This document shows, piece by piece, positions 1 to 20,935 of a stretch of 23,467 nt of DNA. The number at the start of each line of letters is the position of its first letter. Position 1 is the stretch's first letter. Both the position numbers and the translations under genes were made by a program. The notes under the pieces are model-generated. The model did not search any database, had not been told where the DNA came from, and saw only the letters and a program-made list of their open reading frames with translations. Source of the stretch: an uncultured Oscillospiraceae bacterium (lineage in GTDB: Bacteria > Bacillota > Clostridia > Oscillospirales > Oscillospiraceae); the NCBI GenBank assembly GCA_964468195.1, contig CAYXUI010000030.1, forward strand, positions 1-23,467. Direction: 5' to 3'.

Positions 1-1046
1 ACATCTCCCCCTACATGGTCACCGATACCGACAAGATGGAAGCCGTCCTGGACGATGCTTACATCCTGATTACCGATAAGAAGATCTCTTCCATTCAGGA
101 GATCCTGCCCATTCTGGAGCCCATCGTCAAGGCCGGCCGGAAGCTGATGATCATCGCCGAGGATGTAGAAGGCGATGCTCTGGCTACTCTGCTGCTGAAC
201 CGTCTCCAGGGCCGCTTCAATGTGGTCTGCGTCAAGGCTCCCGGCTTCGGCGACCGCCGGAAGGAAATGCTGCAGGATATCGCCGTGCTCACCGGTGGTA
301 CCGTGATCTCCAGCCAGCTGAACATGGAGCTGTCTGAGACCCAGCTGACCGATCTGGGCCACTGCCGTCAGATCGTTGTGAACAAGGACAACACCACCAT
401 CGTCGATGGCGATGGCTCCGCTGCGGATATTGCTGCCCGGGCTCAGATGATCCGTGCCAACATCGCCACCACTACCTCCGACTACGACCGTGAAAAACTC
501 CAGGAGCGTCTGGCAAAACTCTCCGGCGGCGTGGCCGTCATCAAGGTGGGTGCTCAGACCGAAGTTGCCATGAAGGAGCAGAAGTTGAGAGTGGAAGACG
601 CTCTGAACGCTGCCCGTGCTGCCGTGGAAGAAGGCATCGTGGCCGGCGGTGGTACCGCTCAGGTCAACGCTGTGGCCGCTGTGGAAGAGCTGATCGCTAC
701 CCTCCACGGTGACGAGAAGACCGGTGCCCGGATCATTGCCTCCGCCCTGCAGGCTCCCATCCGCCAGATCGCGGAAAATGCCGGTGTGGACGGTTCCGTG
801 ATCTACGAGAAGATCCGCTCCTGCGGTAAGGTGGGTTACGGCTACAACGCCTACACTGAGGAGTTCTGCGACATGATCGCTAACGGCATCGTGGATCCCA
901 CCAAGGTCACCCGTTCCTCTCTGGAAAATGCCGCATCCATCGCCGGTTGTGTGCTGACCACCGAATCTCTGGTGGTCGATAAGCCCGATCCCGCTGCTGA
1001 CGCTGCCATGGCAGCAGCTGCAGCCCAGGGCGGCGGAATGTACTAA
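1..1046 (+). CDS. groEL: Chaperonin GroEL (Cpn60), C-terminal ~348 codons; 5' end is outside the window (frame 3, first full codon at 3)
   Basis: The frame is open from the window edge ([39 protein letters not shown]...). Conserved GroEL blocks are present: [49 protein letters not shown], and a Gly/Met tail QGGGMY. Stop TAA at 1044-1046 is followed by a strong terminator. Confidence 0.97.
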
Positions 1047-1268: not shown

Positions 1269-1850
1269 TTAGTTTTTCCGAAACACAATCATTCCCGTTC
1301 TGGGGTCCATGCGGTCGATAATTGCCAGAGATTCCACCCGATAGCCCAGGTTCCGGATTCGCTGGCCGCCTTCCTGGAAGCCCTTCTCGATGGCGATGCC
1401 GCAACCCACCACTGTGGCCTCTGCATCCTCCACAATGGAGATCAGACCCTGCAAGGCGCAGCCGTTGGCCAGAATGTCATCCACGATGAGAACATGATCC
1501 GTTTTCTTCAGAAGCTTTTTGGACACGATGACCTGGTTCACATTCCGGTGCCGGAAGGACAGGACTCTTGCATCGTATACTTCTTCATCCATGATTTTCC
1601 GCTTTGTCTTCTTGGCAAAAACCATTGGCACCCCAAACTCCCGGGCCACGGCGGCGGCAATGGCAATGCCGGAGACTTCCAGGGTCAGAATTTTGGTGAC
1701 GCTCTGATCTGCATAGCGGCGGTGGATCTCTCTGGCGATTTCATCCACAAGGGCAATGTCCAGCTGGTGATACAAAAAGTTATCTACTTTCAATACTTCC
1801 GGGCTCATCACCACAGCATCCTTTAATATCCGCTCCTGAAGGAAATTCAT
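1269..1850 (-). CDS. xpt: Xanthine phosphoribosyltransferase
   Basis: 193 aa, collinear with Bacillus Xpt as I recall it: VLKVDNFLYHQLD, TLEVSGIAIAAAVA, PRPP loop HVLIVDDILANG, GYRVESLA. A GGAGG RBS lies 7 nt upstream of the ATG. Confidence 0.92.
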   Translation of the reverse strand: MNFLQERILKDAVVMSPEVLKVDNFLYHQLDIALVDEIAREIHRRYADQSVTKILTLEVSGIAIAAAVAREFGVPMVFAKKTKRKIMDEEVYDARVLSFRHRNVNQVIVSKKLLKKTDHVLIVDDILANGCALQGLISIVEDAEATVVGCGIAIEKGFQEGGQRIRNLGYRVESLAIIDRMDPRTGMIVFRKN

Positions 1851-1978: not shown

Positions 1979-2329
1979 ATGGATAAAGAACTGCGTGACC
2001 GGCTGTACTGGCTGAAAGAAGAATTGCTGGAGGAAGAACCCTCCGTTGTGGCCCCACTGGATCTGGATTCCATTCTCGATGGCATTGATCTGCGGGATTA
2101 TGGTGAGGAGGATACACCGGAACCTCCTGCACCTGGCCGGACTGGCCGTAAGAAACTGTCCCGGGCAGAAAAACTGGAGCGGCAGACGTATGAAAATGCC
2201 TATCCCATGGAGGAGCGCAGCGTTGCGCCCCAAAAGAAGAAAGGCGTGAAGGGTCTTGTGATCCTGGCAATTCTGGAAATAATTGCCATTTTCTGCGTGT
2301 TGGGTTGGTGGATGCAATGGCTGGTGTGA
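1979..2329 (+). CDS. Hypothetical small protein: acidic N-terminal region, Lys/Arg-rich linker, single C-terminal transmembrane helix
   Basis: 116 aa. AAGGAG RBS 8 nt upstream of the ATG. The C-terminus GLVILAILEIIAIFCVLGWWMQWLV is a clear hydrophobic helix. The 3' end overlaps the gluQ start. I recognise no family. Confidence 0.6.
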   Translation: MDKELRDRLYWLKEELLEEEPSVVAPLDLDSILDGIDLRDYGEEDTPEPPAPGRTGRKKLSRAEKLERQTYENAYPMEERSVAPQKKKGVKGLVILAILEIIAIFCVLGWWMQWLV

Positions 2330-3237
2330 CCCCCGTTGGGCGGTTTGCCCCAACCCCTTCCGGCCGGATGCATCTGGGCAATGTGTTTTCTGCACTGCTT
2401 GCCTGGCTCTCTGTGAAAAGCAGAGGCGGAGAAATGGTGCTGCGGATGGAGGATCTGGACACCCAGCGTACCAGCGCCGAATTTGCCCAAATCCTCCGGG
2501 AGGACCTGAACTGGCTGGGACTGACTTATGACCGGGAAACAGAACCCCAGTCTCAACGGAGCCGGGTGTATGATAAATACTTTTCCCGAATCCAGGAGAT
2601 GGGGTTGATCTATCCCTGTTACTGCACCCGCAGCCAGCTCCACAGTGTCAACGCTCCCCACCTTTCCGATGGTACCTATGTCTATCCCGGCACCTGCCGA
2701 AACCTGAAGCAAGAAGATATTCCTGCAAACCGGTTGCCTGCCTGGCGGGTCATGGTCCCGGACAAAATCTTGACCGTGGAAGATAAGGTTCAGGGTCACT
2801 ATACATTGAATCTGGCCACCGGCTGCGGGGACATGGTTCTGCGCCGGGCCGACGGGGTCTATGTCTATCAGCTGGCGGTAACGGTGGATGACGGCGAAGC
2901 CGGTGTGACGGAGGTTGTTCGTGGCATGGATCTTCTCAGCTCTGCCCCCCGGCAGATGTATTTGCAGGAACTGCTGGGTTTCCCCCATCCGGAATATGCC
3001 CATGTTCCCATGCTGCTGGCCCCCGATGGCCGCCGCTTAAGCAAACGGGATCAGGATCTGGATCTTGGACAATTGCGGCTCCATGTGACCCGGGAGCAGC
3101 TGCTGGGAAGCTTAGCCTTCTCCGCTGGGATCCTCGATCAAAAGAAAGCCATTTCTCCACAGGAACTGGCGAAAGAATTCTCCTGGGAGAAGGTGCATGG
3201 TGACAGCATTTATTTGAATGCGGAGGATTTGCTGTAA
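2317..3237 (+). CDS. gluQ: Glutamyl-Q tRNA(Asp) synthetase (truncated GluRS paralog, no anticodon-binding domain)
   Basis: GRFAPTPSGRMHLGN (HIGH-type motif), LRMEDLD, Zn-site pattern CYCTR...YVYPGTC, YQLAVTVDD, and RLSKRD (KMSKS equivalent). About 306 aa, as expected for GluQRS. The ORF opens at TTG 2305; I prefer ATG 2317, preceded by GGTGGA 4 nt upstream. Confidence 0.85.
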   Translation: MAGVTPVGRFAPTPSGRMHLGNVFSALLAWLSVKSRGGEMVLRMEDLDTQRTSAEFAQILREDLNWLGLTYDRETEPQSQRSRVYDKYFSRIQEMGLIYPCYCTRSQLHSVNAPHLSDGTYVYPGTCRNLKQEDIPANRLPAWRVMVPDKILTVEDKVQGHYTLNLATGCGDMVLRRADGVYVYQLAVTVDDGEAGVTEVVRGMDLLSSAPRQMYLQELLGFPHPEYAHVPMLLAPDGRRLSKRDQDLDLGQLRLHVTREQLLGSLAFSAGILDQKKAISPQELAKEFSWEKVHGDSIYLNAEDLL

Positions 3238-3250
3238 CTTGAATATCTTG

Positions 3251-3374
3251 GCTCCCCCATAGGGGGAGCTGACCGAAATCTATGATTTCGGTCTGAGAGG
3301 GAGCTCATTCGTTACGCCCCATATCCGTCACCGGCTTGCAGCGGTGACACCTTCCCAGAGGAGAAGGTGTTTTT
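3251..3374 (+). repeat. R3 GC-rich multi-hairpin intergenic repeat, copy 1
   Basis: Consecutive hairpins: GCTCCCCC-ATA-GGGGGAGC (3251-3269), GACCGAAAT-CTATG-ATTTCGGTC (3271-3293), GTCACCG...CGGTGAC (3327-3348), CACCTTC...GAAGGTG (3348-3369). The hairpin order and the GTCACCG/CGGTGAC module are shared with copies at 10290 and 21967. Confidence 0.7.
3348..3374 (+). terminator. Probable gluQ intrinsic terminator (last hairpin of the R3 repeat)
   Basis: 7-bp stem CACCTTC/GAAGGTG, 8-nt loop, then TTTTT at 3370-3374. Confidence 0.55.
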
Positions 3375-3394
3375 GACATCTCCCCTGTCTTTTC

Positions 3395-3559
3395 CGTGGA
3401 TAACTTGTGTTATTCACAGGACAGAACTGTACTTTTCCACAATTTCCACAGGTTTTTCCACAGCACTTGGCAATTTCTCTGTTGAAACATCGGGGAATTT
3501 GTCCCATCTGTCCACTTTTTCCACAGATGTGTGCACAACTGTGGAAAAAGTTATGCACA
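3395..3559. promoter_or_regulatory. oriC-distal DnaA-box cluster (8 boxes with 7-8 of 9 matches to TTATCCACA in 165 bp)
   Basis: cgtggataa 3395-3403 (minus strand, 8/9); ttattcaca 3410-3418 (8/9); ttttccaca 3433-3441 (8/9); atttccaca 3442-3450 (7/9); ttttccaca 3454-3462 (8/9); ttttccaca 3517-3525 (8/9); tgtggaaaa 3540-3548 (minus strand, 8/9); ttatgcaca 3551-3559 (8/9). The TTTTCCACA variant is also the commonest box in the dnaA-dnaN spacer. Confidence 0.7.
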
Positions 3560-3613
3560 AGTGGGCATTACCTATGCCGGACGTGATACCCGTCCCCTGT
3601 AATTTCCTGAATG

Positions 3614-3655
3614 CAAAAAAACTCCACAGCTTTTTGCAAAGCTGTGGAGTTTTTC
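3614..3655 (-). terminator. Intrinsic (bidirectional) terminator of the oxidoreductase gene
   Basis: 13-bp stem ACTCCACAGCTTT/AAAGCTGTGGAGT (3621-3650), flanked by an A run at 3615-3620 and a T run at 3651-3654. Confidence 0.85.
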
Positions 3656-3659
3656 ATAA

Positions 3660-4763
3660 TCAGATCACATAATCGGGCTTTTCAAACTTCTTTTCCAGAG
3701 GATTCTGGCGCTCGATCTCGTTGAAGATGGCAATCTGGGCCTTAATGTGCTCGGGCTTCATGTACAGCTCCGCACCATTTACCAGGGTCTCATACCAGTC
3801 GTGGTAGAACCGGTTGGTGCACTTGCCGAAGGCATTCCACACGTCGGCATCCAGTGCCACCTCTTCCTCATGCCAAACCAGGTGGTTATTGCAGTAGGCA
3901 GGGGTGCCGTTTTCGTTGTGAATGGACTTGTGATCCAGCACGGGAGTGGGCACTTCCTCGTCCAGATAATACTTGTAGACGATCTTGCTGTTCATGACCT
4001 TCATGGTACCCTTGGTGCCAAAGATCTTGAAAATGGGCTGTTCTCCGGCGAAAGCGTCGGAGGGATTGACCTCCATCTCATAGATGGTGCCGTTTGCATA
4101 GTGCATGCGGCAGAACATGTAGTCCTCGGCATCGCCAACGGAGTTCCAGATGGCCATGTGGGAGGTAATGGCGGGCATTTCGTCGGACTCGGCCAGATCC
4201 ATGATCTGCTCGATGGAATGGGCAGCATTGTTGCGCATGGTGCCGGCATCCCGGTACAGCAGGGTCTGCCAGTCGTAGCGGCGGGCAAAGGAATTCTGAC
4301 AGGCACGGACCAGCTTGATATCGCCAATGACGCCTTCCTTCAGCAGACGCTTCATCTGGATGAAATAGTCGTTGTACTTGTACTGATGGAAAATGGTGAA
4401 GATGACATTGTTGGCCTTGGCGGTGTCAATGAGATCCTGAACCATTTCCGGAGTCTTGCACAAAGGCTTCTCGCACAGGACATTGAAGCCATGGGCCAGC
4501 AGATCCTTGGTAATGGGATAGTGCAAGTCAGAGTAGGAAGCGTTGGTGACGAAATCCAGCTCGTCCTTGTGGGCAAAGAGCTCGGTGTAGTCCGTCAGAG
4601 TCTCGCAGCCGAAGATTTCCTTGGCAGCAGCAGCCCGGGCAGGATCAGCTTCCACCACATATTTGACATTGCAGATATCATTGGCTTCGGTGCGCAGGAA
4701 AGCACCGTGGATGTCGCAGCCGGAGCGGCCAAAGCCGATGATGGCCATATTTAACTTCTTCAT
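3660..4763 (-). CDS. Gfo/Idh/MocA-family NAD(P)-dependent oxidoreductase
   Basis: 367 aa. N-terminal Rossmann motif MAIIGFGRSG and the family-typical CEKPL motif (VLCEKPLCKT). GGAGAAG RBS upstream. Substrate cannot be inferred. Confidence 0.88.
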   Translation of the reverse strand: MKKLNMAIIGFGRSGCDIHGAFLRTEANDICNVKYVVEADPARAAAAKEIFGCETLTDYTELFAHKDELDFVTNASYSDLHYPITKDLLAHGFNVLCEKPLCKTPEMVQDLIDTAKANNVIFTIFHQYKYNDYFIQMKRLLKEGVIGDIKLVRACQNSFARRYDWQTLLYRDAGTMRNNAAHSIEQIMDLAESDEMPAITSHMAIWNSVGDAEDYMFCRMHYANGTIYEMEVNPSDAFAGEQPIFKIFGTKGTMKVMNSKIVYKYYLDEEVPTPVLDHKSIHNENGTPAYCNNHLVWHEEEVALDADVWNAFGKCTNRFYHDWYETLVNGAELYMKPEHIKAQIAIFNEIERQNPLEKKFEKPDYVI

Positions 4764-4828: not shown

Positions 4829-4891
4829 TCCGTGGTTTTCCATAGGTTTTTCTCCCCTTTTTTGGACAGTTTGGGCATATGGAATGGGTAG

Positions 4892-4923
4892 CGAAAAAGG
4901 GCGACCGCTGGTCGCCCTTTTCG
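4892..4923 (-). terminator. Intrinsic terminator of mscL
   Basis: Stem GGGCGACC/GGTCGCCC (4899-4917) flanked by A5 and T4 runs, immediately after the mscL stop. Confidence 0.8.
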
Positions 4924-5370
4924 TTATTTCTCTTTCAGCAGATCCCGGATCTCCATCAAAAGCACTTCTTCATTGGAGGGCTTGGGGGGTGCGGGAGGTG
5001 CGGCTTCTTCTTTCTTTTTGCCGATTTCGGTAAGCTTATTCAGGCTCTTTACCAAGAAGAATACCACCAAAGCCAAAATCAGGAAATTGATGACAGCGGA
5101 GATAAAATTGCCGTAATTCAGAGTATTTTGAATCACATTTCCCGCTTCATCCAGCACCGGCTCAGAAAACAGCCGAGGCAAAACGATCTTCAGCTCAGAA
5201 AAATCAATGCCACCCATGAAAATGGCAATGATGGGCATGATGATATCATCCGTCAGGCTTTTGGTAATGGTGGAGAAAGCAGCACCAATGATGGTACCAA
5301 CAGCCAGCGCCATAGCGTTGCCCTTCACGGCAAAAGCCATGAATTCATCGATCCACTTTGGCTTTTTCAT
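4924..5370 (-). CDS. mscL: Large-conductance mechanosensitive channel MscL
   Basis: 148 aa: EFMAFAVKGNAMALAVGTIIGAAFSTITKSLTDDIIMPII, a second TM segment NYGNFISAVINFLILALVVFFLV, and a charged C-terminal helix. This is the classic MscL layout. Confidence 0.95.
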   Translation of the reverse strand: MKKPKWIDEFMAFAVKGNAMALAVGTIIGAAFSTITKSLTDDIIMPIIAIFMGGIDFSELKIVLPRLFSEPVLDEAGNVIQNTLNYGNFISAVINFLILALVVFFLVKSLNKLTEIGKKKEEAAPPAPPKPSNEEVLLMEIRDLLKEK

Positions 5371-5464
5371 ACGTTATATCCCTTTCAATCCTTAGTTAGG
5401 AGTTGTGGTGTTGCTTCGCAACATTTTTATCTTCCAACTCATAACTCCTAATTCCTAACTATTC

Positions 5465-6793
5465 TTACTTCGTAATGACTTCCAGGCCGCCCAGATACTT
5501 TCTCAGCACTTCGGGCACCACCACAGAGCCGTCAGCACGCTGGTTCTGCTCCACGATGGCGGGGAAAATACGGGAAGTTGCCAGACCGGAGCCGTTCAGA
5601 GTGTGCACATAGTCGATCTTGCCATCGGCACGGCGGTAACGGATATTGCCACGGCGGGCCTGATAATCCCGGGCATTGGACACGGAGGAAACTTCCTTAT
5701 AGCCGTTCATGGAGGGAATCAGGATCTCGATATCATAGGTTCTGGCCATGGAAGCGGAGCAGTCACCGGCAGCCAGCTTCACGGTGCGGAAGTGCAGACC
5801 CAGACCGGCAACCAGATTCTCGGCCTTCTTCACCAGTTCTTCGAAAGCCTCATCGGAACCCTCGGGGGTGGTGTACTGGAACATTTCCACCTTGTTGAAC
5901 TGGTGGCCACGAACCATACCACGCTCGTCGGCACGGTGGGAACCGGCTTCCCGCCGGAAGCAGGGGGTGTAAGCGAAGAACTTCTTGGGCAGGTCCTTCT
6001 CCGTCAGAATTTCGTCACGGTAAACGGAAGCCAGAGCGGCTTCAGCAGTGGGCAGCATGTAGAAGGTTGAGCCTTCCGTGGGATGGTTGGCGATCTTAAA
6101 GACCTCGTCAGCGAACTTTGGGAACTGACCGGCGGTTTCGCCGCAGGCATACTCCAGCATGTGGGGGGGCAGGATGAAATCGTAGCCGTCAGCGGTATGG
6201 GTATCAATAAAGTAATTCAGCAGTGCCCACTCCAGTCTTGCACCCATGCCGGTGTACATCCAGTTACCGCCGCCGGCCAGCTTGACGCCACGCTCGTAGT
6301 CGATGAGATCCAGATCCTGGCACAGATCCACATGGTGCTTGGGCTCGAAATCAAAGGAATGCTTCTCGCCGATGTAGCGCAGAGGCTCATTATTTTCCTT
6401 GCCACCGGGGAGCAGGTCAGGATCCGGCAGATTGGGCAGGCTCAGCATAGCAACCCGGTACTCTGCAGACAGTTCTTTCAGCTTTGCAGTGTCGGCCTCG
6501 TTAGCGGCATCCAGTGCAATGGCCTGGGCCTTGTTTTCTTCGATTTTGGCATCCACTTCTGCGGTGGATTCGCCCTTCTTTTCCAGGCCCTTCTTCATGC
6601 CAAAGAGCTTGCCGTTTTCCTTTGCCAGCTTGTTCTTCTGAGCGGTACGGCCTTCGGAGGTGGTCTTCAGGCTGCGGATCTCCACGTCCAGTTCCAGAAT
6701 GCGGTCAACGGTAGCATCGCAGTCTACTTCCTTGGCTTTCAGACCGGCCTTGACAGCATCGGGATTTTCTTTGATTTTACGAATGTCTAACAT
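5465..6793 (-). CDS. serS: Seryl-tRNA synthetase
   Basis: 442 aa. N-terminal coiled-coil arm begins MLDIRKIKENPDAVKAGLKAK. Class II core motifs include FRREAGS, GHQFNKVEMF and TLNGSGLATSR. AGGAGAGG RBS upstream. Confidence 0.96.
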   Translation of the reverse strand: MLDIRKIKENPDAVKAGLKAKEVDCDATVDRILELDVEIRSLKTTSEGRTAQKNKLAKENGKLFGMKKGLEKKGESTAEVDAKIEENKAQAIALDAANEADTAKLKELSAEYRVAMLSLPNLPDPDLLPGGKENNEPLRYIGEKHSFDFEPKHHVDLCQDLDLIDYERGVKLAGGGNWMYTGMGARLEWALLNYFIDTHTADGYDFILPPHMLEYACGETAGQFPKFADEVFKIANHPTEGSTFYMLPTAEAALASVYRDEILTEKDLPKKFFAYTPCFRREAGSHRADERGMVRGHQFNKVEMFQYTTPEGSDEAFEELVKKAENLVAGLGLHFRTVKLAAGDCSASMARTYDIEILIPSMNGYKEVSSVSNARDYQARRGNIRYRRADGKIDYVHTLNGSGLATSRIFPAIVEQNQRADGSVVVPEVLRKYLGGLEVITK

Positions 6794-6842: not shown

Positions 6843-7703
6843 TTATTTTTGCAATTTCATCAGGGCGTCCAGCAGATTTTGCAGGTCTTCCTGACCGTAA
6901 AATTCCAGCTCAAAGCGGCCCTTGCGCTTGCCGTTGACGATTTTCACCCCACGGCCCAGATGCTTGCTCAGGCTCTTTTCGCACTCGGCAACGTAATCCA
7001 CGGCGAAGGTGACCTCCTGCTTGGGAGGCTGCTCCTTTGCCATGTTCTTGCACAGGGTTTCCGCCTGCCGGACAGACAGAGCCAGGGCCACGATTTTCTG
7101 GGCAGCTTCCAGCTGCTTTTTCTCGGTTTTCAGTGTAAGAATAGCACGGGCGTGACCGGCTGTCAACTCTCCCCGCTTCAATTTTTCCAGAACTTCCGGG
7201 CTCAGGTTCAGCAGTCGCAGAGAATTTGCCACGGTAGGCCGGGAACGCCCCACCCGACTGGCAGCGTCTTCCTGAGTCAGGCCGTATTCTTCAATGAGTG
7301 CCTGATAACCCAGTGCTTCTTCCACGCAGTTTAGATCCTGCCGTTGCAGATTTTCGATAAGGGCCAGCTCCATGGCCTTCCGGTCGTCGGCTTCCACCAC
7401 CACCACCGGCACATCGCTGATGCCCGCCAATCGGGCAGCACGCCACCGGCGTTCACCGGCAATGATCTGATAGTAGCCACTGGGCAGTTCCCGCACTGTC
7501 AGAGGTTGGATGACCCCATGGATGGCAATGGAATCTGCCAGTGCCTGCAATTCTTCTTCATCAAACTCCCGCCGGGGCTGGTCGGGATTTGGTTCGATCT
7601 TATAAATGGGCAATTCCCGGTAGGCACTGGTTTCCAGAGTTTCTTCCCCGAAATCCCCCAGTAATGCTCCAAGGCCCTTGCCCAAGCCTTTGTTGGATGC
7701 CAC
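6843..7703 (-). CDS. parB: Chromosome partitioning protein ParB/Spo0J (GTG start)
   Basis: 286 aa: KGLGKGLGALL, ParB box IQPLTVRE...YQIIAGERRWRAARLAG, and HTH LTQEDAASRVGRSRPTVANSLRLL. GGAGG lies 6 nt upstream of the GTG. Confidence 0.95.
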   Translation of the reverse strand: MASNKGLGKGLGALLGDFGEETLETSAYRELPIYKIEPNPDQPRREFDEEELQALADSIAIHGVIQPLTVRELPSGYYQIIAGERRWRAARLAGISDVPVVVVEADDRKAMELALIENLQRQDLNCVEEALGYQALIEEYGLTQEDAASRVGRSRPTVANSLRLLNLSPEVLEKLKRGELTAGHARAILTLKTEKKQLEAAQKIVALALSVRQAETLCKNMAKEQPPKQEVTFAVDYVAECEKSLSKHLGRGVKIVNGKRKGRFELEFYGQEDLQNLLDALMKLQK

Positions 7704-7811: not shown

Positions 7812-8573
7812 TTATTTACCAAGCTTACTTTTGATTTCTTCCGCCATCTCTCTGTAGGCCTTCGCTCCCCTGCTGTATTTATCATAAGCGGTCACGGGGA
7901 TCCCGTGGCTGGGGGCTTCTGCCAGGCGGACATTTCTGGGAATCACAGTGCGGAATACCTTGCCGGGGAAATGCTTGCGCACTTCCTGGGCTACCTGGGT
8001 AGAGAAATTGGTACGGCCGTCAAACATGGTCAGGGCCACCCCAAAAACCTCCAGCCGGGGATTCAGTTTCCGCTTCACCATCCGCAGGGTGTTCATCAGG
8101 TCACTCAAACCCTCCAGTGCGTAATATTCGCACTGCACCGGAATCAAAATGCCATCAGCGGCACAAAGTCCGTTCAGTGTCAGCAATTCCAAAGAGGGCG
8201 GACAGTCAATAAGAATCAGATCATATTGACTTTTTGCGCTGTACAGTGCCCTCTCCAGCTGCCGCTCCCGGTGATCGGCACCGATGAGCTCCACCGTGGC
8301 ACCGGCCAGCTCCGCCGATGATGGCAGAACATCACCGTAATCCGTGTGGATGATGGCATCTTCCAGGGCAACGCCGTTGATGGTCACATCGTAGATGCTG
8401 TAGCGGATCTTATGCTTGTCCACCCCAAGTCCGGAGGTGGCATTGGCCTGGGGGTCGAAGTCACACAGCAGTACCTTCAGTCCCAGCTCATGGAGGGCCG
8501 CCGTCAGATTCACAGCGGTGGTGGTTTTGCCCACGCCACCCTTTTGGTTGACGACTGCGATTATTTTACCCAT
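7812..8573 (-). CDS. parA: ParA/Soj chromosome partitioning ATPase
   Basis: 253 aa with the deviant Walker A motif NQKGGVGKTTTAVNL, plus DFDPQANAT and LILIDCPPSL. GGAGAG RBS upstream. Confidence 0.96.
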   Translation of the reverse strand: MGKIIAVVNQKGGVGKTTTAVNLTAALHELGLKVLLCDFDPQANATSGLGVDKHKIRYSIYDVTINGVALEDAIIHTDYGDVLPSSAELAGATVELIGADHRERQLERALYSAKSQYDLILIDCPPSLELLTLNGLCAADGILIPVQCEYYALEGLSDLMNTLRMVKRKLNPRLEVFGVALTMFDGRTNFSTQVAQEVRKHFPGKVFRTVIPRNVRLAEAPSHGIPVTAYDKYSRGAKAYREMAEEIKSKLGK

Positions 8574-8599
8574 AGGCTCTCCTTTTCTTTCTTTTTCTA

Positions 8600-8615
8600 T
8601 GTTTCACGTGAAACA
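8600..8615. promoter_or_regulatory. parS site 1 (perfect 16-bp palindrome TGTTTCACGTGAAACA)
   Basis: Exact match to the Firmicute parS consensus TGTTNCACGTGAAACA, 27 nt upstream of the parA start. Confidence 0.9.
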
Positions 8616-8638
8616 TGGGTGTTTGCGTTTTCTATGAC

Positions 8639-8654
8639 TGTTTCACGTGAAACA
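8639..8654. promoter_or_regulatory. parS site 2 (perfect 16-bp palindrome TGTTTCACGTGAAACA)
   Basis: A second exact copy, 39 bp centre-to-centre from site 1. On the + strand both sites are preceded by a TTCTATG-type flank. Confidence 0.9.
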
Positions 8655-8655
8655 A

Positions 8656-9009
8656 TCAATTTCCCGCAGAGGGTTCCGAAGTAGCGGTGATGGTGGTATA
8701 ATTCTGGCCAATTTTCTTTTGTCCCTCTTTCCAGTGCTGGTAAGTGGGAACCGCCAGAGCCGCTGCCAAAATGGATACCAAAATCAGGGACAGCCACAGG
8801 GTCCGCACCTGTTTTTTCAGTTTTTCCACCTGTTCTTCCGGGGAAATGGTCTTTTTGCGGCTGACTTTCTTTACAGCAGTGACTTCTTTTCTGCCAGGAA
8901 GCTGAACCACCGTCCCCGGACGTACCGGATAACGCTGCATTTCCAGTTGACATTCCATGCAAAAAACCTGCTCATCTTTCGTCTCCCGGCCACATTTGAT
9001 GCAGTTCAG
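8656..9009 (-). CDS. Zinc-ribbon plus single-pass membrane protein (hypothetical); probable non-canonical CTG start at 9007-9009. The ORF-track ATG is at 8958.
   Basis: The frame stays open upstream of ATG 8958 and encodes NCIKCGRETKDEQVFCMECQ, a CxxC-x10-CxxC zinc ribbon that the ATG splits in half. There is no ATG, GTG or TTG in that extension. The CTG is preceded by AAAGGCGGTGA. TM helix: LWLSLILVSILAAALAVPTY. Confidence 0.55.
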   Translation of the reverse strand: MNCIKCGRETKDEQVFCMECQLEMQRYPVRPGTVVQLPGRKEVTAVKKVSRKKTISPEEQVEKLKKQVRTLWLSLILVSILAAALAVPTYQHWKEGQKKIGQNYTTITATSEPSAGN

Positions 9010-9225: not shown

Positions 9226-10149
9226 TTACTTCCACAGTCCGTCAGGATACAGTCCCTTTTCGGTCATGCTCTTCAGGGCTTCCACCACCACGGGCTTATC
9301 GGCAGCATAGGTCACGCCATACCAGCGGTCTTTGGAGGACAGCACCTTAATACTGGCGCTGCCGGTTTCGATCATATGGGTGATTGGCAGAGCCAGATAG
9401 TACTCGCACTTCAGGGGATTTTTAGGAAGGTATGCATCCAGATAAGCGGAGAACTGATCGTGAATCTCCTGAAGGAAGGAAGGCATGAAGCCCCACATAT
9501 TCATGGAAACGATGGTCTTCTCCCCTACATCGGTCCAGCTCTGGCCGCCGTCCTCGGTAAAGTGGATGCCGCCTGCATAGGTCTCGATCTGGGTCCGCTC
9601 AGTGATCTCCGTCAGCATGCCATTATCGTTGGTGACGCAAATGCCCCGGGCCACAGAGCCGTTTTCGGTAACGGTCTTACCGAGTTCGTAACCCACCATG
9701 CAGTAGCCGTAGGGATCGGTACAGGTAGACAGATGCTCGTAAATGGTCTTGAAGGCTTTCTTGCCATAGTAGTCATCGGCATTAATGACGGCAAAAGGCG
9801 CACCATCGATGGCATCAGCCGCACAGAGAACCGCATGGCTGGTACCCCAGGGTTTGGTACGGCCTTCGGGAACGGTGTAGCCTTCCGGCAGGACGTTCAG
9901 TTCCTGATAAGCATAACGCACTTCCACGGGAGCCTTGGAAAGTCTTGCACCAACGGTATCCATAAAGTCCTTCTTGATGGCTTCCTTGATGATGATGACC
10001 ACAGTCTCAAATCCGGCCTGATGGGCATCATAAATGGAATAGTCCAGAATGGCCTCCCCCTGGCTGCCCACGGGATCAATCTGTTTTAAGCCACCATAAC
10101 GGCTGCCCATACCGGCTGCCATGACCACAAGAACAGGTTTCTTTGCCAT
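9226..10149 (-). CDS. Sugar-phosphate nucleotidyltransferase family protein (NTP_transferase fold); substrate unknown
   Basis: 307 aa. N-terminal nucleotide-binding signature VVMAAGMGSRYGGLKQ, then KPWGTSHAV and VINADDYYG. AAAGGAGA RBS upstream. Confidence 0.8.
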   Translation of the reverse strand: MAKKPVLVVMAAGMGSRYGGLKQIDPVGSQGEAILDYSIYDAHQAGFETVVIIIKEAIKKDFMDTVGARLSKAPVEVRYAYQELNVLPEGYTVPEGRTKPWGTSHAVLCAADAIDGAPFAVINADDYYGKKAFKTIYEHLSTCTDPYGYCMVGYELGKTVTENGSVARGICVTNDNGMLTEITERTQIETYAGGIHFTEDGGQSWTDVGEKTIVSMNMWGFMPSFLQEIHDQFSAYLDAYLPKNPLKCEYYLALPITHMIETGSASIKVLSSKDRWYGVTYAADKPVVVEALKSMTEKGLYPDGLWK

Positions 10150-10448: not shown

Positions 10449-10691
10449 TCATTTCAGTCTCCGTTCCAGCGTCACCGCATTCAAGCTGGTCAGATAGACC
10501 CGGTTAAAGCCGTATTCACTGGTGAGAACAAAGCTTTTCGGCAGATCATCACAGGGCACGACCTCCCCTTCCCTCTCCGCCTGTTCCAGAAATTCCCGGG
10601 TGCGTTTGGAGGTAGAGGTGTTGTCCAGATCAAAGATGCCAATAATACTCCGGTCCCGCACCGCCATGTCATTTCCTATGGATAAGTACAT
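10449..10691 (-). CDS. DUF370 protein, RemB/YaaB-like (RemA/RemB extracellular-matrix regulator family)
   Basis: 80 aa. MYLSIGNDMAVRDRSIIGIFDLDN...PKSFVLTS...VYLTSLNAVTLERR is collinear with B. subtilis YaaB/RemB (MYIHLGDDFVV..DIVGIFD...) as I recall it. Confidence 0.75.
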   Translation of the reverse strand: MYLSIGNDMAVRDRSIIGIFDLDNTSTSKRTREFLEQAEREGEVVPCDDLPKSFVLTSEYGFNRVYLTSLNAVTLERRLK

Positions 10692-10711: not shown

Positions 10712-10822
10712 TGTCATCTTGAGCGAGCGAAGCGAGTCGAAAGATCTACGCACTAAATTGACTGCATATATCACAAAAGTGCGTAGATCCCTCCACTCGC
10801 TTACGCTCGGTCGGGATGGCAA
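10712..10822. repeat. R4 long imperfect hairpin repeat, copy 1
   Basis: Left arm TGTCATCTTGAGCGAGCGAAGCGAGTCGAAAGATCTACGCAC. The right arm reverse-complements to TTGCCATCCCGACCGAGCGTAAGCGAGTGGAGGGATCTACGCAC. The loop is about 25 nt. Arms match those of the copy at 18986-19098. Confidence 0.8.
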
Positions 10823-10824
10823 CT

Positions 10825-11262
10825 TTACTTAAGTTTCTTCCATTCCACTACCGCCAGTTCATCACAGCGGTTATTCTTGGGATTGGTGGCGTGCCCCTTT
10901 ACCCAGTGGTAACTTACCTTGTGCTTCATAGTTAAGCTAAGCAATTCCTCCCAGAGATCCGGGTTCAGGGCGGGCTTTTTATCGGACTTGATCCAGCCCT
11001 TTTTCTTCCAGCCCCAGGCCCAGCCCTTTTCCAGTGCGTCAATGACGTACTTGCTGTCGGAGTAAAGCTCTACAATGCAGGGCTCTTTCAGAGCTTTCAA
11101 TCCTTCAATAACGGCTGTCAGCTCCATCCGGTTATTGGTGGTCTTGGCCTCGCCGCCGGAGAGTTCCTTTTCCACGCCGTTAAATTCCAGGATGGCACCC
11201 CAGCCACCGGGGCCGGGGTTACCGGAACAGGCACCGTCGGTGTACAGCGTCACGGTTTTCAT
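10825..11262 (-). CDS. rnhA: Ribonuclease HI
   Basis: 145 aa: [44 protein letters not shown] (the DEDD catalytic pattern). The start ATG overlaps the gyrA stop (ATGA, 11259-11262). Confidence 0.95.
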
Positions 11263-13760: not shown

Positions 13761-13789
13761 AAAGCACCTCCAATAATATATCAACGCAA

Positions 13790-13923
13790 TCGTAGGGCGG
13801 GGGCATGCCCCCGCCGCTCTGTTTCCAAAACAAAGCGGTTTCGATTATTTGGAACGCACTGCAAATAAAAAAGAATGAAATAATTTGGTACCCGGTCGAC
13901 GGGGGCATGCCCCCGCCCTACGA
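13790..13923. repeat. R1 REPIN-like doublet, copy B (gyrB-gyrA spacer)
   Basis: TCGTAGGGCGGGGGCATGCCCCCGCCGC (13790-13817), an AT-rich spacer, then GGTCGACGGGGGCATGCCCCCGCCCTACGA (13894-13923). Confidence 0.92.
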
Positions 13924-13931
13924 TACAAAAA

Positions 13932-15857: not shown

Positions 15858-15921
15858 TCATTGTCCTCCTATCGTTACCAAACCGCATGATGTTGTGACG
15901 CTGTAAATAATTCACGCGGGT

Positions 15922-16033
15922 TCGTAGGGCGGGGGCATGCCCCCGCCGCCCCACGTCCGGAATAAATGTTTTTCCAAAAACCGGACGGCAAAAATGGATA
16001 CCTGGTCGGCGGAGTCATGACTCCGCCCTACGA
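15922..16033. repeat. R1 REPIN-like doublet, copy C (recF-gyrB spacer; overlaps the recF 3' end)
   Basis: TCGTAGGGCGGGGGCATGCCCCCGCCGC (15922-15949), a spacer, then GGTCGGCGGAGTCATGACTCCGCCCTACGA (16004-16033). The right-hand palindrome has two compensated changes. Confidence 0.92.
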
Positions 16034-17127
16034 ATATTTCCTTTGATTACTTCAATATTCTTCCCCAGTTTGGTAAATCTGCCGCTTTCGCAGCAGGTGA
16101 TGAATACCTGGCCGGAGATGATCTGGTTCAGCACAAAATCCTGCCTTCCCGGATCCAGTTCGGAGAGCACGTCATCCAATAGCAGTACCGGCTGCTCTCC
16201 CCATTCCCGGCCCATGAGTTCCCGCTGGGCCAGTTTCAAACTGATGGCAGCAGTGCGGGTCTGCCCCTGGGAACCATAGGCTTTCAGGTCGATTCCGTTC
16301 AAGGCCACGGTGAAATCATCTTTCTGGGGGCCTGTCAGGCATTGAGCCGTTTCCAGCTCCGCACGGTAATGCCGCTGCAAATGCTCCTGCAAGTCTTCCG
16401 TCAATTTCGCCACCGGGGCAAAGGGATTGGAAACCGTGGAGACGGTCTTATATTCCAGAGAAAAATTCTCCACACCTCCGGAAAACTGCCTGTGGAAATC
16501 TTCTGCGCTTTTCCCCAGAGCATCGAAAAACCGGGCTCGGTAGGAGATCAGCAGCGCACCCACCTGACAAAGCCTGGTGTTGTATTCCGGCAGAATGTCC
16601 AGCACGGCGGGATTTTCAAAGTGGTCTTTCAAAATCCGGCTTTTTTGCTCCAAAATCCGGTGGTACTCCCCCAGAGCCGCTTCGTAATTGGGCCGCAGAC
16701 CGCAAAGGGCCGTATCGGCGAACCGCCGCCGCTGGGCACCGCCCATTTTCAGGATCAGTAAGTCCTCCGGGCAAAACAGCACCGTAGGCAATACCCCTGC
16801 CAGTTCCGAAGCGCTTTTCTTTCTGGCACCGTTGCGGAAGATCTGCCGGGGCCGGGCACCGGAAAACAGGAGATAGCGCAGCGTCTGCTGCCGCTCCTGA
16901 GAGAAAACCGTACCCTGAATTTCTCCGAAATCTGCCCCAAAGGACACCATTTCTGCCGTTTTCTGAGCCCGGAAACTTTTTCCGCTGCCAAGATAAGCGA
17001 TGGCTTCCAGCAGATTGGTCTTTCCCTGGGCATTGTCCCCCACGATGAGATTCACCCCGGGGTCAAATTCCACCTCTGCCTCGGTATAATTCCGGAAGGT
17101 GCGCAGCGTCAGTTTTTCCAGATTCAT
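16015..17127 (-). CDS. recF: DNA replication and repair protein RecF
   Basis: 370 aa: FRNY, Walker A GDNAQGKTNLLEAI, the signature region, and Walker B LLLDDVLSELD. The start overlaps the yaaA stop (ATGA). The last 6 codons and the stop lie inside R1 copy C. Confidence 0.95.
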   Translation of the reverse strand: MNLEKLTLRTFRNYTEAEVEFDPGVNLIVGDNAQGKTNLLEAIAYLGSGKSFRAQKTAEMVSFGADFGEIQGTVFSQERQQTLRYLLFSGARPRQIFRNGARKKSASELAGVLPTVLFCPEDLLILKMGGAQRRRFADTALCGLRPNYEAALGEYHRILEQKSRILKDHFENPAVLDILPEYNTRLCQVGALLISYRARFFDALGKSAEDFHRQFSGGVENFSLEYKTVSTVSNPFAPVAKLTEDLQEHLQRHYRAELETAQCLTGPQKDDFTVALNGIDLKAYGSQGQTRTAAISLKLAQRELMGREWGEQPVLLLDDVLSELDPGRQDFVLNQIISGQVFITCCESGRFTKLGKNIEVIKGNIRRAES

Positions 17128-17422: not shown

Positions 17423-17586
17423 TCGTAGGGCGGGGGCATGCTCCCGCCGCTCAGGCAGCGATGATTGCATAGGTATTTATTAAAATGCTGTGTCCCCACA
17501 TCTGAGATACCGTCGTAACATACTTCATTCAACGAACCAATTAAAAATCTATAGCGGGTCGGCGGGGGCATGCCCCCGCCCTACGA
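17423..17586. repeat. R1 REPIN-like doublet, copy D (dnaN-yaaA spacer)
   Basis: TCGTAGGGCGGGGGCATGCTCCCGCCGC (17423-17450), a 106-nt AT-rich spacer, then GGTCGGCGGGGGCATGCCCCCGCCCTACGA (17557-17586). Confidence 0.92.
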
Positions 17587-17588
17587 TG

Positions 17589-18698
17589 TTAGCCGTTCTT
17601 AATTCTCACCGGCAGCACCATATAAGCAAAATCAAACTTATCATCCACTGGGGTCAGGACGATGGGGCTTAAGCCGTTGGTCAGTTCCATGGTCACCTCT
17701 TCGGAGGGGATGACTTTCAAGGCATCGGCAAGATACCGGACATTGAAGCCGATCTCCAGTTCCTTGCCGTCACCGGCGATGGAACATTTATCCTCTGCGG
17801 CACCGATGGTGGTATTGGTGCGCATCAAAAGCTCATTGTGGCTGAACACGCAGCGCACGGGGCTCTTGTATTTTTCGGAAACGATCAGACCCACACGCTC
17901 CACGGAAGAGGAAAGATCGGAAACATGGGCCACCAGCTGAATGGGGCAGTTGGTGGGAACGACTTTCCGCCAATCCAGGAATTCGCCGTCCAACAGCCGG
18001 CAGACCAACGTTGCGTTGCCGATCTGATACAAAATGTGCTTGGGGCCAAGGGTGAAAGAAGCATCGTCTTCGGAATCGGTAACGATTTTTTCCACTTCTT
18101 TCAGTCCCTGAGCGGGAACCACAAAGGAAAGCTCCCGCTCGGTGCTCTCCTGGGGGTGGTAAGTCCGGCGGGCCAAACGGAAACCGTCCACGGCAATGGC
18201 GGTGATGGAATCGTTGGTGACCTCGAACTTCACGCCGGTGTGGATGGGACGGCCCTGATTTTCGGACACGGCAAAAATGGTGCCGGAGATCAGTTCCTTC
18301 AGCTTGTTCTGGGGGATCTTGATGGGACGGCCGGAGTTGACATCCGGAAGGTCGGGGTAATCCTCGGCACTTTCGGCGGAAATGGTGAAGGAAGCATAGC
18401 CTGCCCGGATGGAGACTTTGAAATCCTCGCTGACCACCACCGTCACCGGGCCTTCCGGCAGACGGCGGACAATGTCGCCAAAGAGCTTGGCCGGGAGAAT
18501 GCACTCACCGGGGTCCGAGACTTCTGCGGGAATGTCATAGGTAATGGCCGTTTCCATATTGTAGCCGGTGAGGGAAATGCCGTGACCGGCCTTGCAGAAG
18601 ATACCCTCGATGACGGAAAGGCTGCTCTTCTGCGCTACTGTCCGTCCGGCAATATTCAGACCCTGAACCAGCATGTTTTTTTCACAGGTAAAACGCAT
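17589..18698 (-). CDS. dnaN: DNA polymerase III beta sliding clamp
   Basis: Full-length clamp (MRFTCEKNMLVQGLNIAGRTV..., ending PVRI). The ORF opens at 18704 (MTM...), but the AGGA RBS spacing and homology to MKFT-type N-termini favour ATG 18696-18698. Confidence 0.95.
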   Translation of the reverse strand: MRFTCEKNMLVQGLNIAGRTVAQKSSLSVIEGIFCKAGHGISLTGYNMETAITYDIPAEVSDPGECILPAKLFGDIVRRLPEGPVTVVVSEDFKVSIRAGYASFTISAESAEDYPDLPDVNSGRPIKIPQNKLKELISGTIFAVSENQGRPIHTGVKFEVTNDSITAIAVDGFRLARRTYHPQESTERELSFVVPAQGLKEVEKIVTDSEDDASFTLGPKHILYQIGNATLVCRLLDGEFLDWRKVVPTNCPIQLVAHVSDLSSSVERVGLIVSEKYKSPVRCVFSHNELLMRTNTTIGAAEDKCSIAGDGKELEIGFNVRYLADALKVIPSEEVTMELTNGLSPIVLTPVDDKFDFAYMVLPVRIKNG

Positions 18699-18704
18699 GG
18701 TCAT

Positions 18705-18960
18705 TTTCCTTTCTTGAATAAAATAAGAAAGATAGATATATCTATCATAGGTTAAGGCAGTCGTAACAGTATTAGTACAAATTTATGTGGAAAAGTCCCT
18801 TTTGCCTTAGAGCCGCAACGGAAATTTCTCCACAACCCGGTGTGAAAAAATAAGAAGTTTTCCACAGCCAATTTTTCCGGCTGTGGGGAAATTTTTTCTG
18901 AGCGAGTTTTCCACACAATTTCTTTCCACAATCCACAGGGACTGTGGATAAATTTTTGCG
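18705..18960. promoter_or_regulatory. oriC (dnaA-dnaN spacer): AT-rich unwinding-element candidate plus a DnaA-box array
   Basis: 18705-18785 is AT-rich and contains the perfect 16-bp palindrome GATAGATATATCTATC (18731-18746). DnaA boxes: tgtggaaaa 18786-18794; ttctccaca 18826-18834; ttttccaca 18858-18866; tgtggggaa 18882-18890; ttttccaca 18907-18915; ctttccaca 18922-18930; caatccaca 18929-18937; tgtggataa 18943-18951 (9/9). Gene orientation switches at dnaA. Confidence 0.8.
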
Positions 18961-18985: not shown

Positions 18986-19098
18986 TGTCATCCCGACCAA
19001 GCGTAGCGCGTGGAGGGATCTACGCACCGAATGTCACTTATGCAGTACGATAGTGCCAAGATTCCTCGAATCCGCTTGCGCTCCGCTCGGAATGACAA
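18986..19098. repeat. R4 long imperfect hairpin repeat, copy 2 (inside the origin spacer, next to the dnaA stop)
   Basis: Left arm TTGTCATCCCGACCAAGCGTAGCGCGTGGAGGGATCTACGCAC. The right arm reverse-complements to TTGTCATTCCGAGCGGAGCGCAAGCGGATTCGAGGAATCTTGGCAC. Confidence 0.8.
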
Positions 19099-19105
19099 CG
19101 TATTC

Positions 19106-20419: not shown

Positions 20420-20477
20420 ATTGCGGCTCCTTTCTCTTATCTGAAAGCCCAATTCCGGGCATAACTATTCACCCTAA

Positions 20478-20506
20478 ATCTTATCACATTTGACCATAAA
20501 ACTCAA
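20478..20506 (-). promoter_or_regulatory. Candidate dnaA promoter in an AT-rich leader with weak DnaA boxes
   Basis: On the minus strand: TTGAGT (20501-20506), 17-nt spacer ending TGA, TAAGAT (20478-20483). Nearby boxes: tatggataa 20536-20544 (8/9) and tatggagaa 20513-20521 (7/9). Confidence 0.35.
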
Positions 20507-20542
20507 GGAAATTATGGAGAAATAAATTCTAAATTTATGGAT

Positions 20543-20573
20543 AAAAAGGAACAGGCAAGGCCTGTTCCTTTTT
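20543..20573. terminator. Orphan terminator-like hairpin between the dnaA leader and a repeat block
   Basis: AGGAACAGGC (20547-20556) pairs with GCCTGTTCCT (20560-20569). A5 precedes and T5 follows. No CDS ends next to it on either strand. Confidence 0.5.
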
Positions 20574-20589
20574 ACGAGACTGATACCCT

Positions 20590-20817
20590 GGCGGTAATCG
20601 TTACACCATTGGGTGGGTAGCCCGGTAACGAATCCGGGTGAAAATTGTGACTGTAAGGGCGATCATTGGTCGCCCGCCCGATAACTGACCAGATACCAGC
20701 GGGCGGCCAATAGCCGCCCCTACGAAATTGTTGTGACATTTCCCAAAAAACTCATCACTCCTAACTTCTACTATGTCCCGAACCGGGCGGGCCCAATGGT
20801 GTAACGATTACCACCGG
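20590..20817. repeat. Composite inverted-repeat element with an R2 doublet nested inside
   Basis: An identical 21-bp core GGTAATCGTTACACCATTGGG at 20593-20613 is inverted at 20792-20812. Flanks extend the similarity to about 37 bp. Each arm abuts a CCCGG...CCGGG-type hairpin. Confidence 0.75.
20652..20725. repeat. R2 REPIN-like doublet (GTARGGGCG-RYYATTGGY-CGCCCGC units)
   Basis: TGTAAGGGCGATCATTGGTCGCCCGCC (left) and GCGGGCGGCCAATAGCCGCCCCTACGA (right) are mutually inverted around a 20-nt spacer. The GTAG-like head plus GC palindrome layout matches R1. Confidence 0.75.
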
Positions 20818-20906
20818 CCTATCCCACTCGAAATAGTCTTTGGCCACTGTCCACTTCTCTCTACATTCCGCTCAAAAAACCTCCCGGAAATTGGTGACTT
20901 TTTGGC

Positions 20907-20935
20907 TTGATTCTGGGTATTTCCTATGCTAGAAT
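20907..20935 (+). promoter_or_regulatory. Candidate promoter for the YitT-family gene
   Basis: TTGATT (20907-20912), 17-nt spacer ending TGC, TAGAAT (20930-20935). Confidence 0.5.

Follow-up and report, generated by a model that had tools for sequence, protein, structure and literature searches.

A dense cluster of DnaA boxes between convergent genes near oriC of an uncultured Oscillospiraceae bacterium, a probable addition to the origin-proximal DnaA-box clusters

The stretch of DNA considered here (hereafter the window: 23,467 nt, positions 1-23,467 of the forward strand of contig CAYXUI010000030.1, assembly GCA_964468195.1) comes from an uncultured Oscillospiraceae bacterium and contains, in addition to its dnaA-dnaN region, a dense cluster of DnaA boxes that is our subject. 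The SerS protein encoded in the window is 82-88% identical to the SerS of Faecousia metagenome-assembled genomes (Oscillospiraceae), an identity that marks the source, to judge from this protein, as an uncultured gut clostridial bacterium, Faecousia-like. A preliminary description of this DNA had placed the cluster between the 3' ends of gluQ and of a gene for a Gfo/Idh/MocA oxidoreductase (Gfo), and had denied it the part of a promoter for either; the gene calls confirm that the two genes converge, and no promoter-like site was found in the cluster. The co-directional run dnaA...parA-parB-serS-mscL-Gfo ends with Gfo. The boxes, each compared with TTATCCACA, and their two flanking genes are as follows.

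2305-3237, plus strand: gluQ-like gene (tRNA-synt_1c catalytic domain), left flank, 3' end towards the cluster (gene call/Pfam)
3395-3559, both strands: DnaA-box cluster, nine boxes in 165 bp by box scan
3395, minus strand: one-mismatch box TTATCCACG
3410, plus strand: one-mismatch box TTATTCACA
3433, 3454 and 3517, plus strand: one-mismatch boxes TTTTCCACA
3442, plus strand: two-mismatch box ATTTCCACA
3530, minus strand: two-mismatch box TTGTGCACA
3540, minus strand: one-mismatch box TTTTCCACA
3551, plus strand: one-mismatch box TTATGCACA
3660-4763, minus strand: Gfo/Idh/MocA oxidoreductase gene, right flank, 3' end towards the cluster (gene call/Pfam)

The preliminary description had counted eight boxes with 7-8 of 9 matches, on both strands and within 165 bp; the cluster itself stands, but the count does not, since the scan gives nine, seven with 8/9 matches to TTATCCACA and two with 7/9. 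Measured against TTWTNCACA, the general bacterial DnaA-box consensus (TT(A/T)TNCACA; PMC4674748), six of the nine are perfect and three have one mismatch. Perfect TTWTNCACA sites number 12 in the window, six at 3410-3559, six at 18678-18951 and none elsewhere. The 9-mer TTTTCCACA, a variant documented in cyanobacteria (PMC4674748), occurs seven times, four times in the cluster and three times in the dnaA-dnaN spacer, so that two earlier claims hold: that four cluster boxes are of this variant, and that it recurs in the origin spacer at 18786, 18858 and 18907. It is also dominant in the dnaA-dnaN spacers of the relatives L016 and L080. The distance from cluster to spacer, put earlier at about 15 kb, comes to ~15.4 kb.

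Such a density is far from what composition would yield. Window-wide, 18 one-mismatch boxes were observed against 4.5 +/- 2.3 in shuffles, which never reached the observed counts, and the background outside both clusters predicts 0.043 such boxes per 165 bp (Poisson P(>=7) ~5e-14). These figures bear on the idea, barely credible to us, that the boxes arose as an artefact of chance or composition or that another DNA-binding protein or a repeat family accounts for the motif. Several families resembling repetitive extragenic palindromes (REP-like) or miniature inverted-repeat transposable elements (MITE-like) do occupy intergenic regions of the window and would favour it; a window-wide repeat search, however, placed the boxes in none of these families, and 3340-3665 has no match in plasmid and phage collections, hence no sign of mobile-element origin. 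Moreover, the variants TTATCCACG, TTATTCACA and TTATGCACA fit TTWTNCACA rather than one longer repeat unit, no Spo0A boxes were found, and parS is located elsewhere. Domain IV of the organism's DnaA aligns with the DNA-binding domains of E. coli and M. tuberculosis, with the motif ARDHSTVLYA for GRDHTTVLHA in E. coli; in what we take to be the E. coli numbering, R399, P423, D433 and H434 are kept, and T435S and H439Y are changed. By its sequence this domain appears canonical, and the cluster very probably binds DnaA in vivo.

The dnaA-dnaN spacer of the same window offers the closest comparison, and its anatomy is, by sequence, that expected of an origin.

18678-18951, both strands: oriC box array, six perfect TTWTNCACA boxes, in or next to the dnaA-dnaN spacer
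18710-18749: AT-rich stretch, 82.5% AT, the highest 40-mer of the region, adjoining dnaN
18786 (minus), 18858 (plus) and 18907 (plus): copies of TTTTCCACA in the spacer, by 9-mer count

Both arrays use the same box variants, with TTTTCCACA dominant, both have six perfect boxes, both have boxes in either orientation, and both contain tight tandem pairs (for example TTTCCACAATTTCCACAGG against TTTCCACAATCCACAGG). The cluster differs in what surrounds its boxes: it adjoins gluQ and Gfo rather than dnaA or dnaN, the genes converge on it, and an AT-rich unwinding element, whose absence had been claimed earlier, is indeed wanting, the maximum in 3238-3659 being 67.5% AT per 40 bp, at the terminator, against 82.5% next to dnaN. 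Beyond the boxes, blastn-short and local alignment detected no homology between the cluster and the window's oriC. These differences argue strongly against the notion that the cluster is an additional origin, be it second or auxiliary, or half of a bipartite oriC that has been displaced; we rate it as extremely improbable. It draws on the equal number of boxes in the two arrays, on the unusual scarcity of boxes upstream of dnaA (one good box, at 20536) and on the repeated rearrangement of the origin region in this lineage. Against it, in addition to the missing unwinding element, the convergent genes and the lack of homology to the spacer, no trio-like repeat adjoining the end boxes was found by reading the sequence, and the examined relatives in which dnaA adjoins parA (L021 and L068, and L016 by strict scan) also have no box cluster upstream of dnaA, so that there was probably no upstream half to displace.

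Some further features of the origin region may be recorded here. The single good DnaA box upstream of dnaA (within 20453-20987) is TTATCCATA, and the same interval holds a MITE-like element with 42-nt inverted arms at 20572-20613 and 20792-20833. A second hairpin repeat family (TGTCATC...GAGCG...GGATCTACGCAC) is present at 10712-10802 and 18986-19100, the latter copy lying inside the dnaA-dnaN spacer and hence in the presumed oriC, where it separates the box array from dnaA. The usual arrangement is rpmH-dnaA; rpmH was found neither adjoining dnaA nor anywhere else in the window.

Closer inspection resolves the cluster into two sub-arrays within a pocket bounded by hairpins.

3348-3374, plus strand: terminator-like hairpin, CACCTTC..GAAGGTG stem (3348-3369) followed by T5, facing gluQ, read from the sequence
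3365-3559: conserved module, four changes in 195 bp against the diverged strain L089, flanked on either side by sequence that is non-homologous or strongly diverged
3395-3462, minus then four plus: sub-array A, boxes at 3395(-) TTATCCACG, 3410(+) TTATTCACA, 3433(+), 3442(+) and 3454(+)
3463-3516: box-free spacer, 54 bp between the sub-arrays, no IHF consensus
3517-3559, plus, minus, minus, plus: sub-array B, boxes at 3517(+) TTTTCCACA, 3530(-) TTGTGCACA, 3540(-) TTTTCCACA and 3551(+) TTATGCACA
3560-3607: strain-variable filler, small hairpins between cluster and terminator
3606-3645: bidirectional intrinsic terminator, A7-CTCCACAGC...GCTGTGGAG-T5, directly after the Gfo stop codon

Sub-array A contributes five boxes and sub-array B four. 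The last three boxes of A (3433, 3442 and 3454) run head-to-tail with start-to-start distances of 9 and 12 bp, and the four boxes of B are spaced by 13, 10 and 11 bp, with an imperfect palindrome of 38 bp (3514-3551) in that sub-array. On the gluQ side the pocket begins with a series of small hairpins, of which 3348-3369 is the last; on the other side, 3553-3655 folds at -39 kcal/mol (z = -6). The predicted terminators thus bracket the arrays, which would sit in a supposedly quiet pocket between two convergent units; read from these sequences, the terminators should shield the cluster from the gluQ and Gfo transcripts on both sides and keep the pocket transcriptionally silent or nearly so.

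A role in transcription finds little footing here. The promoter and terminator consensus scan returned no sigma-70-like promoter on either strand of 3238-3607, and no gene with a promoter is oriented away from the boxes as in a DnaA-regulated promoter, for both neighbours end at the cluster. No Rfam family reaches its gathering score anywhere in the window, and a permissive scan of 3150-3750 gave sub-threshold matches only, the best being the small RNA (sRNA) RsaE/RoxS (RF01820) at 3553-3652 on the plus strand, with 28.4 bits against a gathering threshold of 79; we rejected this candidate, the body of which (3560-3607) is replaced in L089. That match is nonetheless the best case for supposing that the boxes are the DnaA-controlled operator or promoter of an unannotated sRNA or peptide, such as an RsaE/RoxS-like sRNA ending at the shared terminator: weak as it is, it is full-length (CCCGUCCCCU against the consensus CCCAUCCCCU) and followed by a terminator, the stretch folds well, and several B. 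subtilis DnaA-box clusters double as promoters (PMC4447404). Yet a match of this score carries no significance window-wide, the fold z-score owes its value to the terminator hairpin, promoter-like sites are missing from the cluster and its immediate surroundings, and L089 has lost the would-be sRNA body while keeping the boxes. Nor are the overlapping open reading frames (ORFs), 3328-3558 on the minus strand and 3367-3672 on the plus strand, any better as candidates: neither has a Pfam match or is preserved, and the plus-strand frame crosses the segment that L089 has exchanged for unrelated sequence of different length, in agreement with the earlier judgement that they are not protein-like. 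Overall, we regard an sRNA or peptide operator as very unlikely.

Comparison within the species indicates that the boxes are maintained. For the Gfo protein of the window, coding sequence turned up on 11 short Logan contigs drawn from several sequencing runs, and the same Gfo-cluster-gluQ junction is present in six independent assemblies of Sequence Read Archive runs (L081-L086) and is therefore not an assembly artefact. Module 3365-3559 (195 bp) is unchanged in L081-L088. In L089, the Gfo gene differs at 23 synonymous positions over 1104 nt, and 12 of 160 nt are changed in the mscL-Gfo spacer; at the resulting neutral rate of ~8%, 13.2 changes would be expected in the cluster, and there are three in its 165 nt (P(<=3) ~9e-4), so that its rate of change is ~4-5x lower than that of synonymous and other intergenic sites. 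Of these three changes, two lead towards a box, TTATTCACA becoming TTATCCACA and, in the box-free spacer, GTCCAC becoming TTCCAC at 3507-3515. L089 has several changes within or close to the stem of the 3348-3374 hairpin, yet preserves that stem. On the other side, the ~50 bp between cluster and terminator (3560-3607) have been swapped for ~77 nt of unrelated hairpin sequence while the boxes stay, and the conserved unit therefore begins exactly at the outermost box, TTATGCACA. This contrast is the strongest evidence we have that the array itself, rather than neighbouring sequence, is maintained, and as far as the compared sequences go the ~195-bp module behaves as a discrete conserved unit within the species. 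Apart from the query, the 15 of 640 members listed of the 90% Gfo cluster belong to sister species at 83-92% identity; no Gfo variants at 95-99% were among the members listed, and the members looked up have no box cluster.

Beyond the species, we surveyed 1.16 Mb of sequence, made up of 80 loci centred on serS in GTDB species representatives, defining a strict cluster as at least four one-mismatch boxes. Such clusters turned up only in dnaA-dnaN spacers (L016, L080) and downstream of serS (L003, L038), and relaxed criteria added the dnaA-dnaN spacers of L021, L068 and L075. Clusters by a relaxed definition (TTWTNCACA with <=1 mismatch, at least four) in L002, L065, L076, L011, L064 and L051 proved on inspection to be AT-rich noise or parS sites. 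A third cluster downstream of serS, in L012, was recognised by core-motif count.

L003, 11922-12174: cluster downstream of serS, strict
L038, 12496-12774: cluster downstream of serS, strict, with 13 relaxed boxes
L012, 11397-11525: cluster downstream of serS, by core-motif count
Window, 8600-8615 and 8639-8654: two perfect parS sites TGTTTCACGTGAAACA upstream of parA, ~5 kb from the cluster

The clusters of L003, L038 and L012 lie within 0.1-1.3 kb downstream of serS. With the window left out, every one of the two or three non-origin clusters lies in the ~13% of the surveyed sequence that is <=2 kb downstream of serS (P ~0.02 to 0.002), and all four, the window's included, are 3.7-5 kb from the parS arrays preceding parA. 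The other three resemble the window cluster in their parS-parAB-serS neighbourhood, 0.1-1.9 kb downstream of serS, and in their TTTTCCACAG-type boxes, and differ in that the sequences cannot be aligned outside the boxes; since this is so, and since most relatives have no such cluster, common descent is not established. One pair does have more in common: L003 and sub-array B contain a 37-nt arrangement TCCAC-TTTTTCCACAGA-N-CTGTGGAAA, in which the convergent pair 3517(+)/3540(-) and its 14-bp gap have their counterpart (alignment score 44, against 27-33 for other cluster pairs), and this likeness in sequence hints at shared descent.

Two observations on the same neighbourhood stand apart from these clusters. 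In several relatives, a DnaA-box pair or trio (TTATCCACA and, on the opposite strand 13 bp away, TTATCCGCA) lies ~2-3 kb upstream of parA (L006 3692/3705, L011 3236/3249, L012 5605-5693, L003 5486) and may be a DnaA-regulated promoter; the window has no counterpart. The parS motif, with <=1 mismatch, occurs in 61 of the 80 serS loci (five copies in L038) and lies just upstream of parA in all eight inspected loci that contain parA; both window sites are inside a mechanical ORF, 8597-8962 on the minus strand.

A bolder reading of this recurrence is that Oscillospiraceae have a class of promoter-less, terminator-insulated DnaA-box modules, gained and lost repeatedly in a single variable slot directly downstream of the parS-parA-parB-serS(-mscL) centromere block, that act as a DnaA reservoir coupling Soj/ParB to initiation, with the window, L003, L012 and L038 as four instances. 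We consider this speculative and improbable. If it were true, the slot would fall in a ParB spreading zone of B. subtilis-like extent, and the synergy in B. subtilis between loss of the DnaA-box clusters and loss of spo0J (PMC3245932) would gain a physical counterpart.

The history of the locus has also to be considered against the gene map of the window, which was drawn from Pfam scans and gene calls and comprises, besides gluQ and Gfo, the following.

15-1046, plus strand: groEL, 3' part (gene call/Pfam)
1269-1850, minus strand: phosphoribosyltransferase gene (gene call/Pfam)
1979-2329, plus strand: small ORF (gene call)
4924-5370, minus strand: mscL (gene call/Pfam)
5465-6793, minus strand: serS (gene call/Pfam)
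6843-7703, minus strand: parB (gene call/Pfam)
7812-8573, minus strand: parA (gene call/Pfam)
9226-10149, minus strand: NTP-transferase gene (gene call/Pfam)
10449-10691, minus strand: RemA-like gene (gene call/Pfam)
10825-11262, minus strand: RNase H gene (gene call/Pfam)
Between the RNase H gene and dnaN, in map order: gyrA, gyrB, recF and the gene of an S4-domain protein (gene calls/Pfam)
17589-18704, minus strand: dnaN (gene call/Pfam)
19106-20452, minus strand: dnaA (gene call/Pfam)
20988-21929, plus strand: YitT-family gene, divergent (gene call/Pfam)

The longest ORF is twice found on the strand opposite to the real gene (4879-5451, where that gene is mscL on the minus strand, and 1110-1826, where it is that of the phosphoribosyltransferase), and the mscL antisense frame still gave tblastn matches of 32-54% identity in relatives. 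The groEL and gluQ genes are head-on to forks from the dnaA-dnaN origin. A REP-like palindromic family, TCGTAGGGCGGGGGCATGCCCCCGCC, forms inverted pairs at 1095-1253, 13789-13924, 15921-16034 and 17423-17587, four intergenic regions that include gyrA/gyrB, gyrB/recF and S4/dnaN.

Sister contigs with a Gfo gene at 75-94% identity (L091-L105, L110-L117), several with the full order parA-parB-serS-mscL-Gfo, cease to match the window's DNA at the Gfo stop codon. What comes after Gfo in L091 and L110-L114 is a set of REP-like/MITE-like hairpins and then an operon of nfnA/pyrK-like and gltD-like genes, and in the relatives L003 and L055 gluQ is followed by the NTP-transferase gene; synteny is therefore broken at the window's gluQ/Gfo junction. 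Farther out, the parAB-serS-mscL block is co-directional with the dnaA side in the window, convergent with RemA-gyrA...dnaA in L004, L011 and L025, and divergent from dnaA in L016, L021 and L068. The slot that follows mscL varies too: nothing occupies it in L005, L011 and L035, L004 and L008 have a lipoprotein gene there, L091, L110 and L112 have Gfo, L003 has a box cluster, and the window has both Gfo and the cluster. By these gene orders, rearrangement of the origin region has happened repeatedly among Faecousia-like genomes. The Gfo-nfnA(pyrK-like) intergenic regions (L110 7105-7600, L112 7105-7394, L091 6105-6394) have differing REP-like/MITE-like hairpins, followed by a conserved promoter, TTGACA...TATAAT, and contain no DnaA boxes.

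Such a history gives room to the main alternative, in which the cluster is a stranded, neutral relic, either the formerly DnaA-responsive upstream region of a neighbouring operon or a copy of an origin-type array, left behind by rearrangement; it may bind DnaA but would have no selected role. The breakpoint at the gluQ/Gfo junction, where relatives have Gfo or mscL followed by pyrK-like and gltD-like genes and gluQ followed by an NTP-transferase gene, speaks for such a scenario; the L003 cluster, with its 37-nt arrangement in common with sub-array B, lies between mscL and an nfnA/pyrK-like operon, and sister species manage without any cluster. The module, however, changes ~4-5x more slowly within the species than synonymous and other intergenic sites while its flank has turned over, as seen in one diverged strain. 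In addition, sisters whose Gfo-pyrK region and promoter are intact lack boxes there altogether, which shows that boxes are not general to that promoter, and the cluster has no extended homology to the window's own oriC. We therefore judge a relic unlikely, though it is the rival to be taken most seriously.

To our knowledge, non-origin DnaA-box clusters have been characterised experimentally in few model bacteria, namely datA and the DnaA-reactivating sequences (DARS) of E. coli, the DnaA-box clusters (DBCs) of B. subtilis, and those of Streptomyces. The E. coli datA locus, of ~1 kb with five boxes, acts negatively on initiation. Like datA, the window cluster is a non-coding, non-promoter group of boxes that lies at the 3' side of neighbouring units and is replicated soon after initiation, with convergent flanks, no promoter-like site and a distance of 15.4 kb from oriC. 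It differs in having nine boxes in 165 bp rather than five in ~1 kb, in lacking sequence homology, and in the IHF site between the essential boxes that defines the mechanism of datA: the IHF consensus WATCARNNNNTTR has no match in 3238-3659, the only matches in the window being at 5077 and 7460. We know of neither IHF nor Hda in Bacillota. In E. coli, datA acts via IHF-dependent hydrolysis of DnaA-ATP (PMC5295017).

The DBCs of B. subtilis, likewise a member of the Bacillota, are the nearer model. There are six of them, intergenic, outside oriC and mostly close to it, and stably bound by DnaA (PMC3245932; PMC5295017); their joint deletion causes early initiation in a dosage-dependent manner (PMC3245932; PMC5295017), and their loss is synergistic with that of spo0J (PMC3245932). 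The window cluster is likewise a dense intergenic array off the origin and near oriC (in window coordinates, 3.4-3.6 kb for the cluster and 17.6-20.5 kb for dnaA/dnaN); as with the DBCs, its position is not conserved between related species although closeness to the origin is, and by analogy the expected mechanism would be the same, a dosage-dependent binding or titration of DnaA. It differs in lying between convergent 3' ends and terminators, with no plausible transcriptional target, whereas B. subtilis DBCs overlap the DnaA-regulated promoters of sda, ywlC, yydA, vpr and trmE (PMC4447404); and where B. subtilis has six, one non-origin cluster is visible in these 23 kb.

Taken together, these comparisons lead us to favour, with modest confidence, a lineage-specific, promoter-less DnaA-box cluster outside oriC, of the kind of the B. 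subtilis DBCs and E. coli datA, and to regard it as a probable addition to the known class of origin-proximal DnaA-box clusters. In kind, this is what the preliminary description had proposed, and the density of the array, its box variant, the missing gene, RNA, promoter and unwinding element, and its conservation within the species all support it. As to function, DnaA would presumably bind the closely spaced boxes cooperatively. The locus should be copied very soon after initiation, and we propose that its duplication would promptly double a set of good sites near the origin, drawing DnaA away from oriC and damping premature re-initiation. Titration or inactivation of DnaA by the cluster is argued here by analogy with the known systems, and that it would measurably restrain initiation seems to us somewhat less likely than not.

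Several points weigh against this reading. The test for selection relies on one diverged strain, and a recent recombination of the module could mimic constraint. No box cluster was found in any of the sister contigs with Gfo at 75-94% identity, and the lineages free of it include L091-L094, L099-L103 and L110-L114 (Gfo 83-94%). The conservation at the same synteny position that had been suggested as a check thus fails beyond the species: at least 12 sister lineages have the serS-mscL-Gfo neighbourhood or the same Gfo gene and no cluster, so that the element is dispensable, and either evolutionarily young or often lost. This failure does not refute the analogy with DBCs, because DBC positions also vary between Bacillus species, yet stay proximal to oriC (Okumura et al., PMC3245932). 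The clusters of L003, L012 and L038 lie upstream of co-directional genes, unlike that of the window, and could be linked to promoters. Finally, single DBC deletions in B. subtilis are without phenotype, which appears only when all six are deleted (PMC3245932), and a review rates the contribution of DBCs as minor (PMC5295017).

A DnaA-box cluster of this kind would nonetheless be an unusually clean case, free of entanglement with a promoter and with DnaA binding as the only obvious activity left for selection to act on. It also offers a view of how such elements evolve: one species has it under constraint, the closest relatives have none, and more distant species show clusters in the same neighbourhood again. 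Confirmation would make the 195-bp fragment a compact one for titration tests free of transcriptional side effects, and would lend weight to the idea that DnaA sinks close to oriC form a layer of initiation control that is general in the Bacillota but turns over rapidly.

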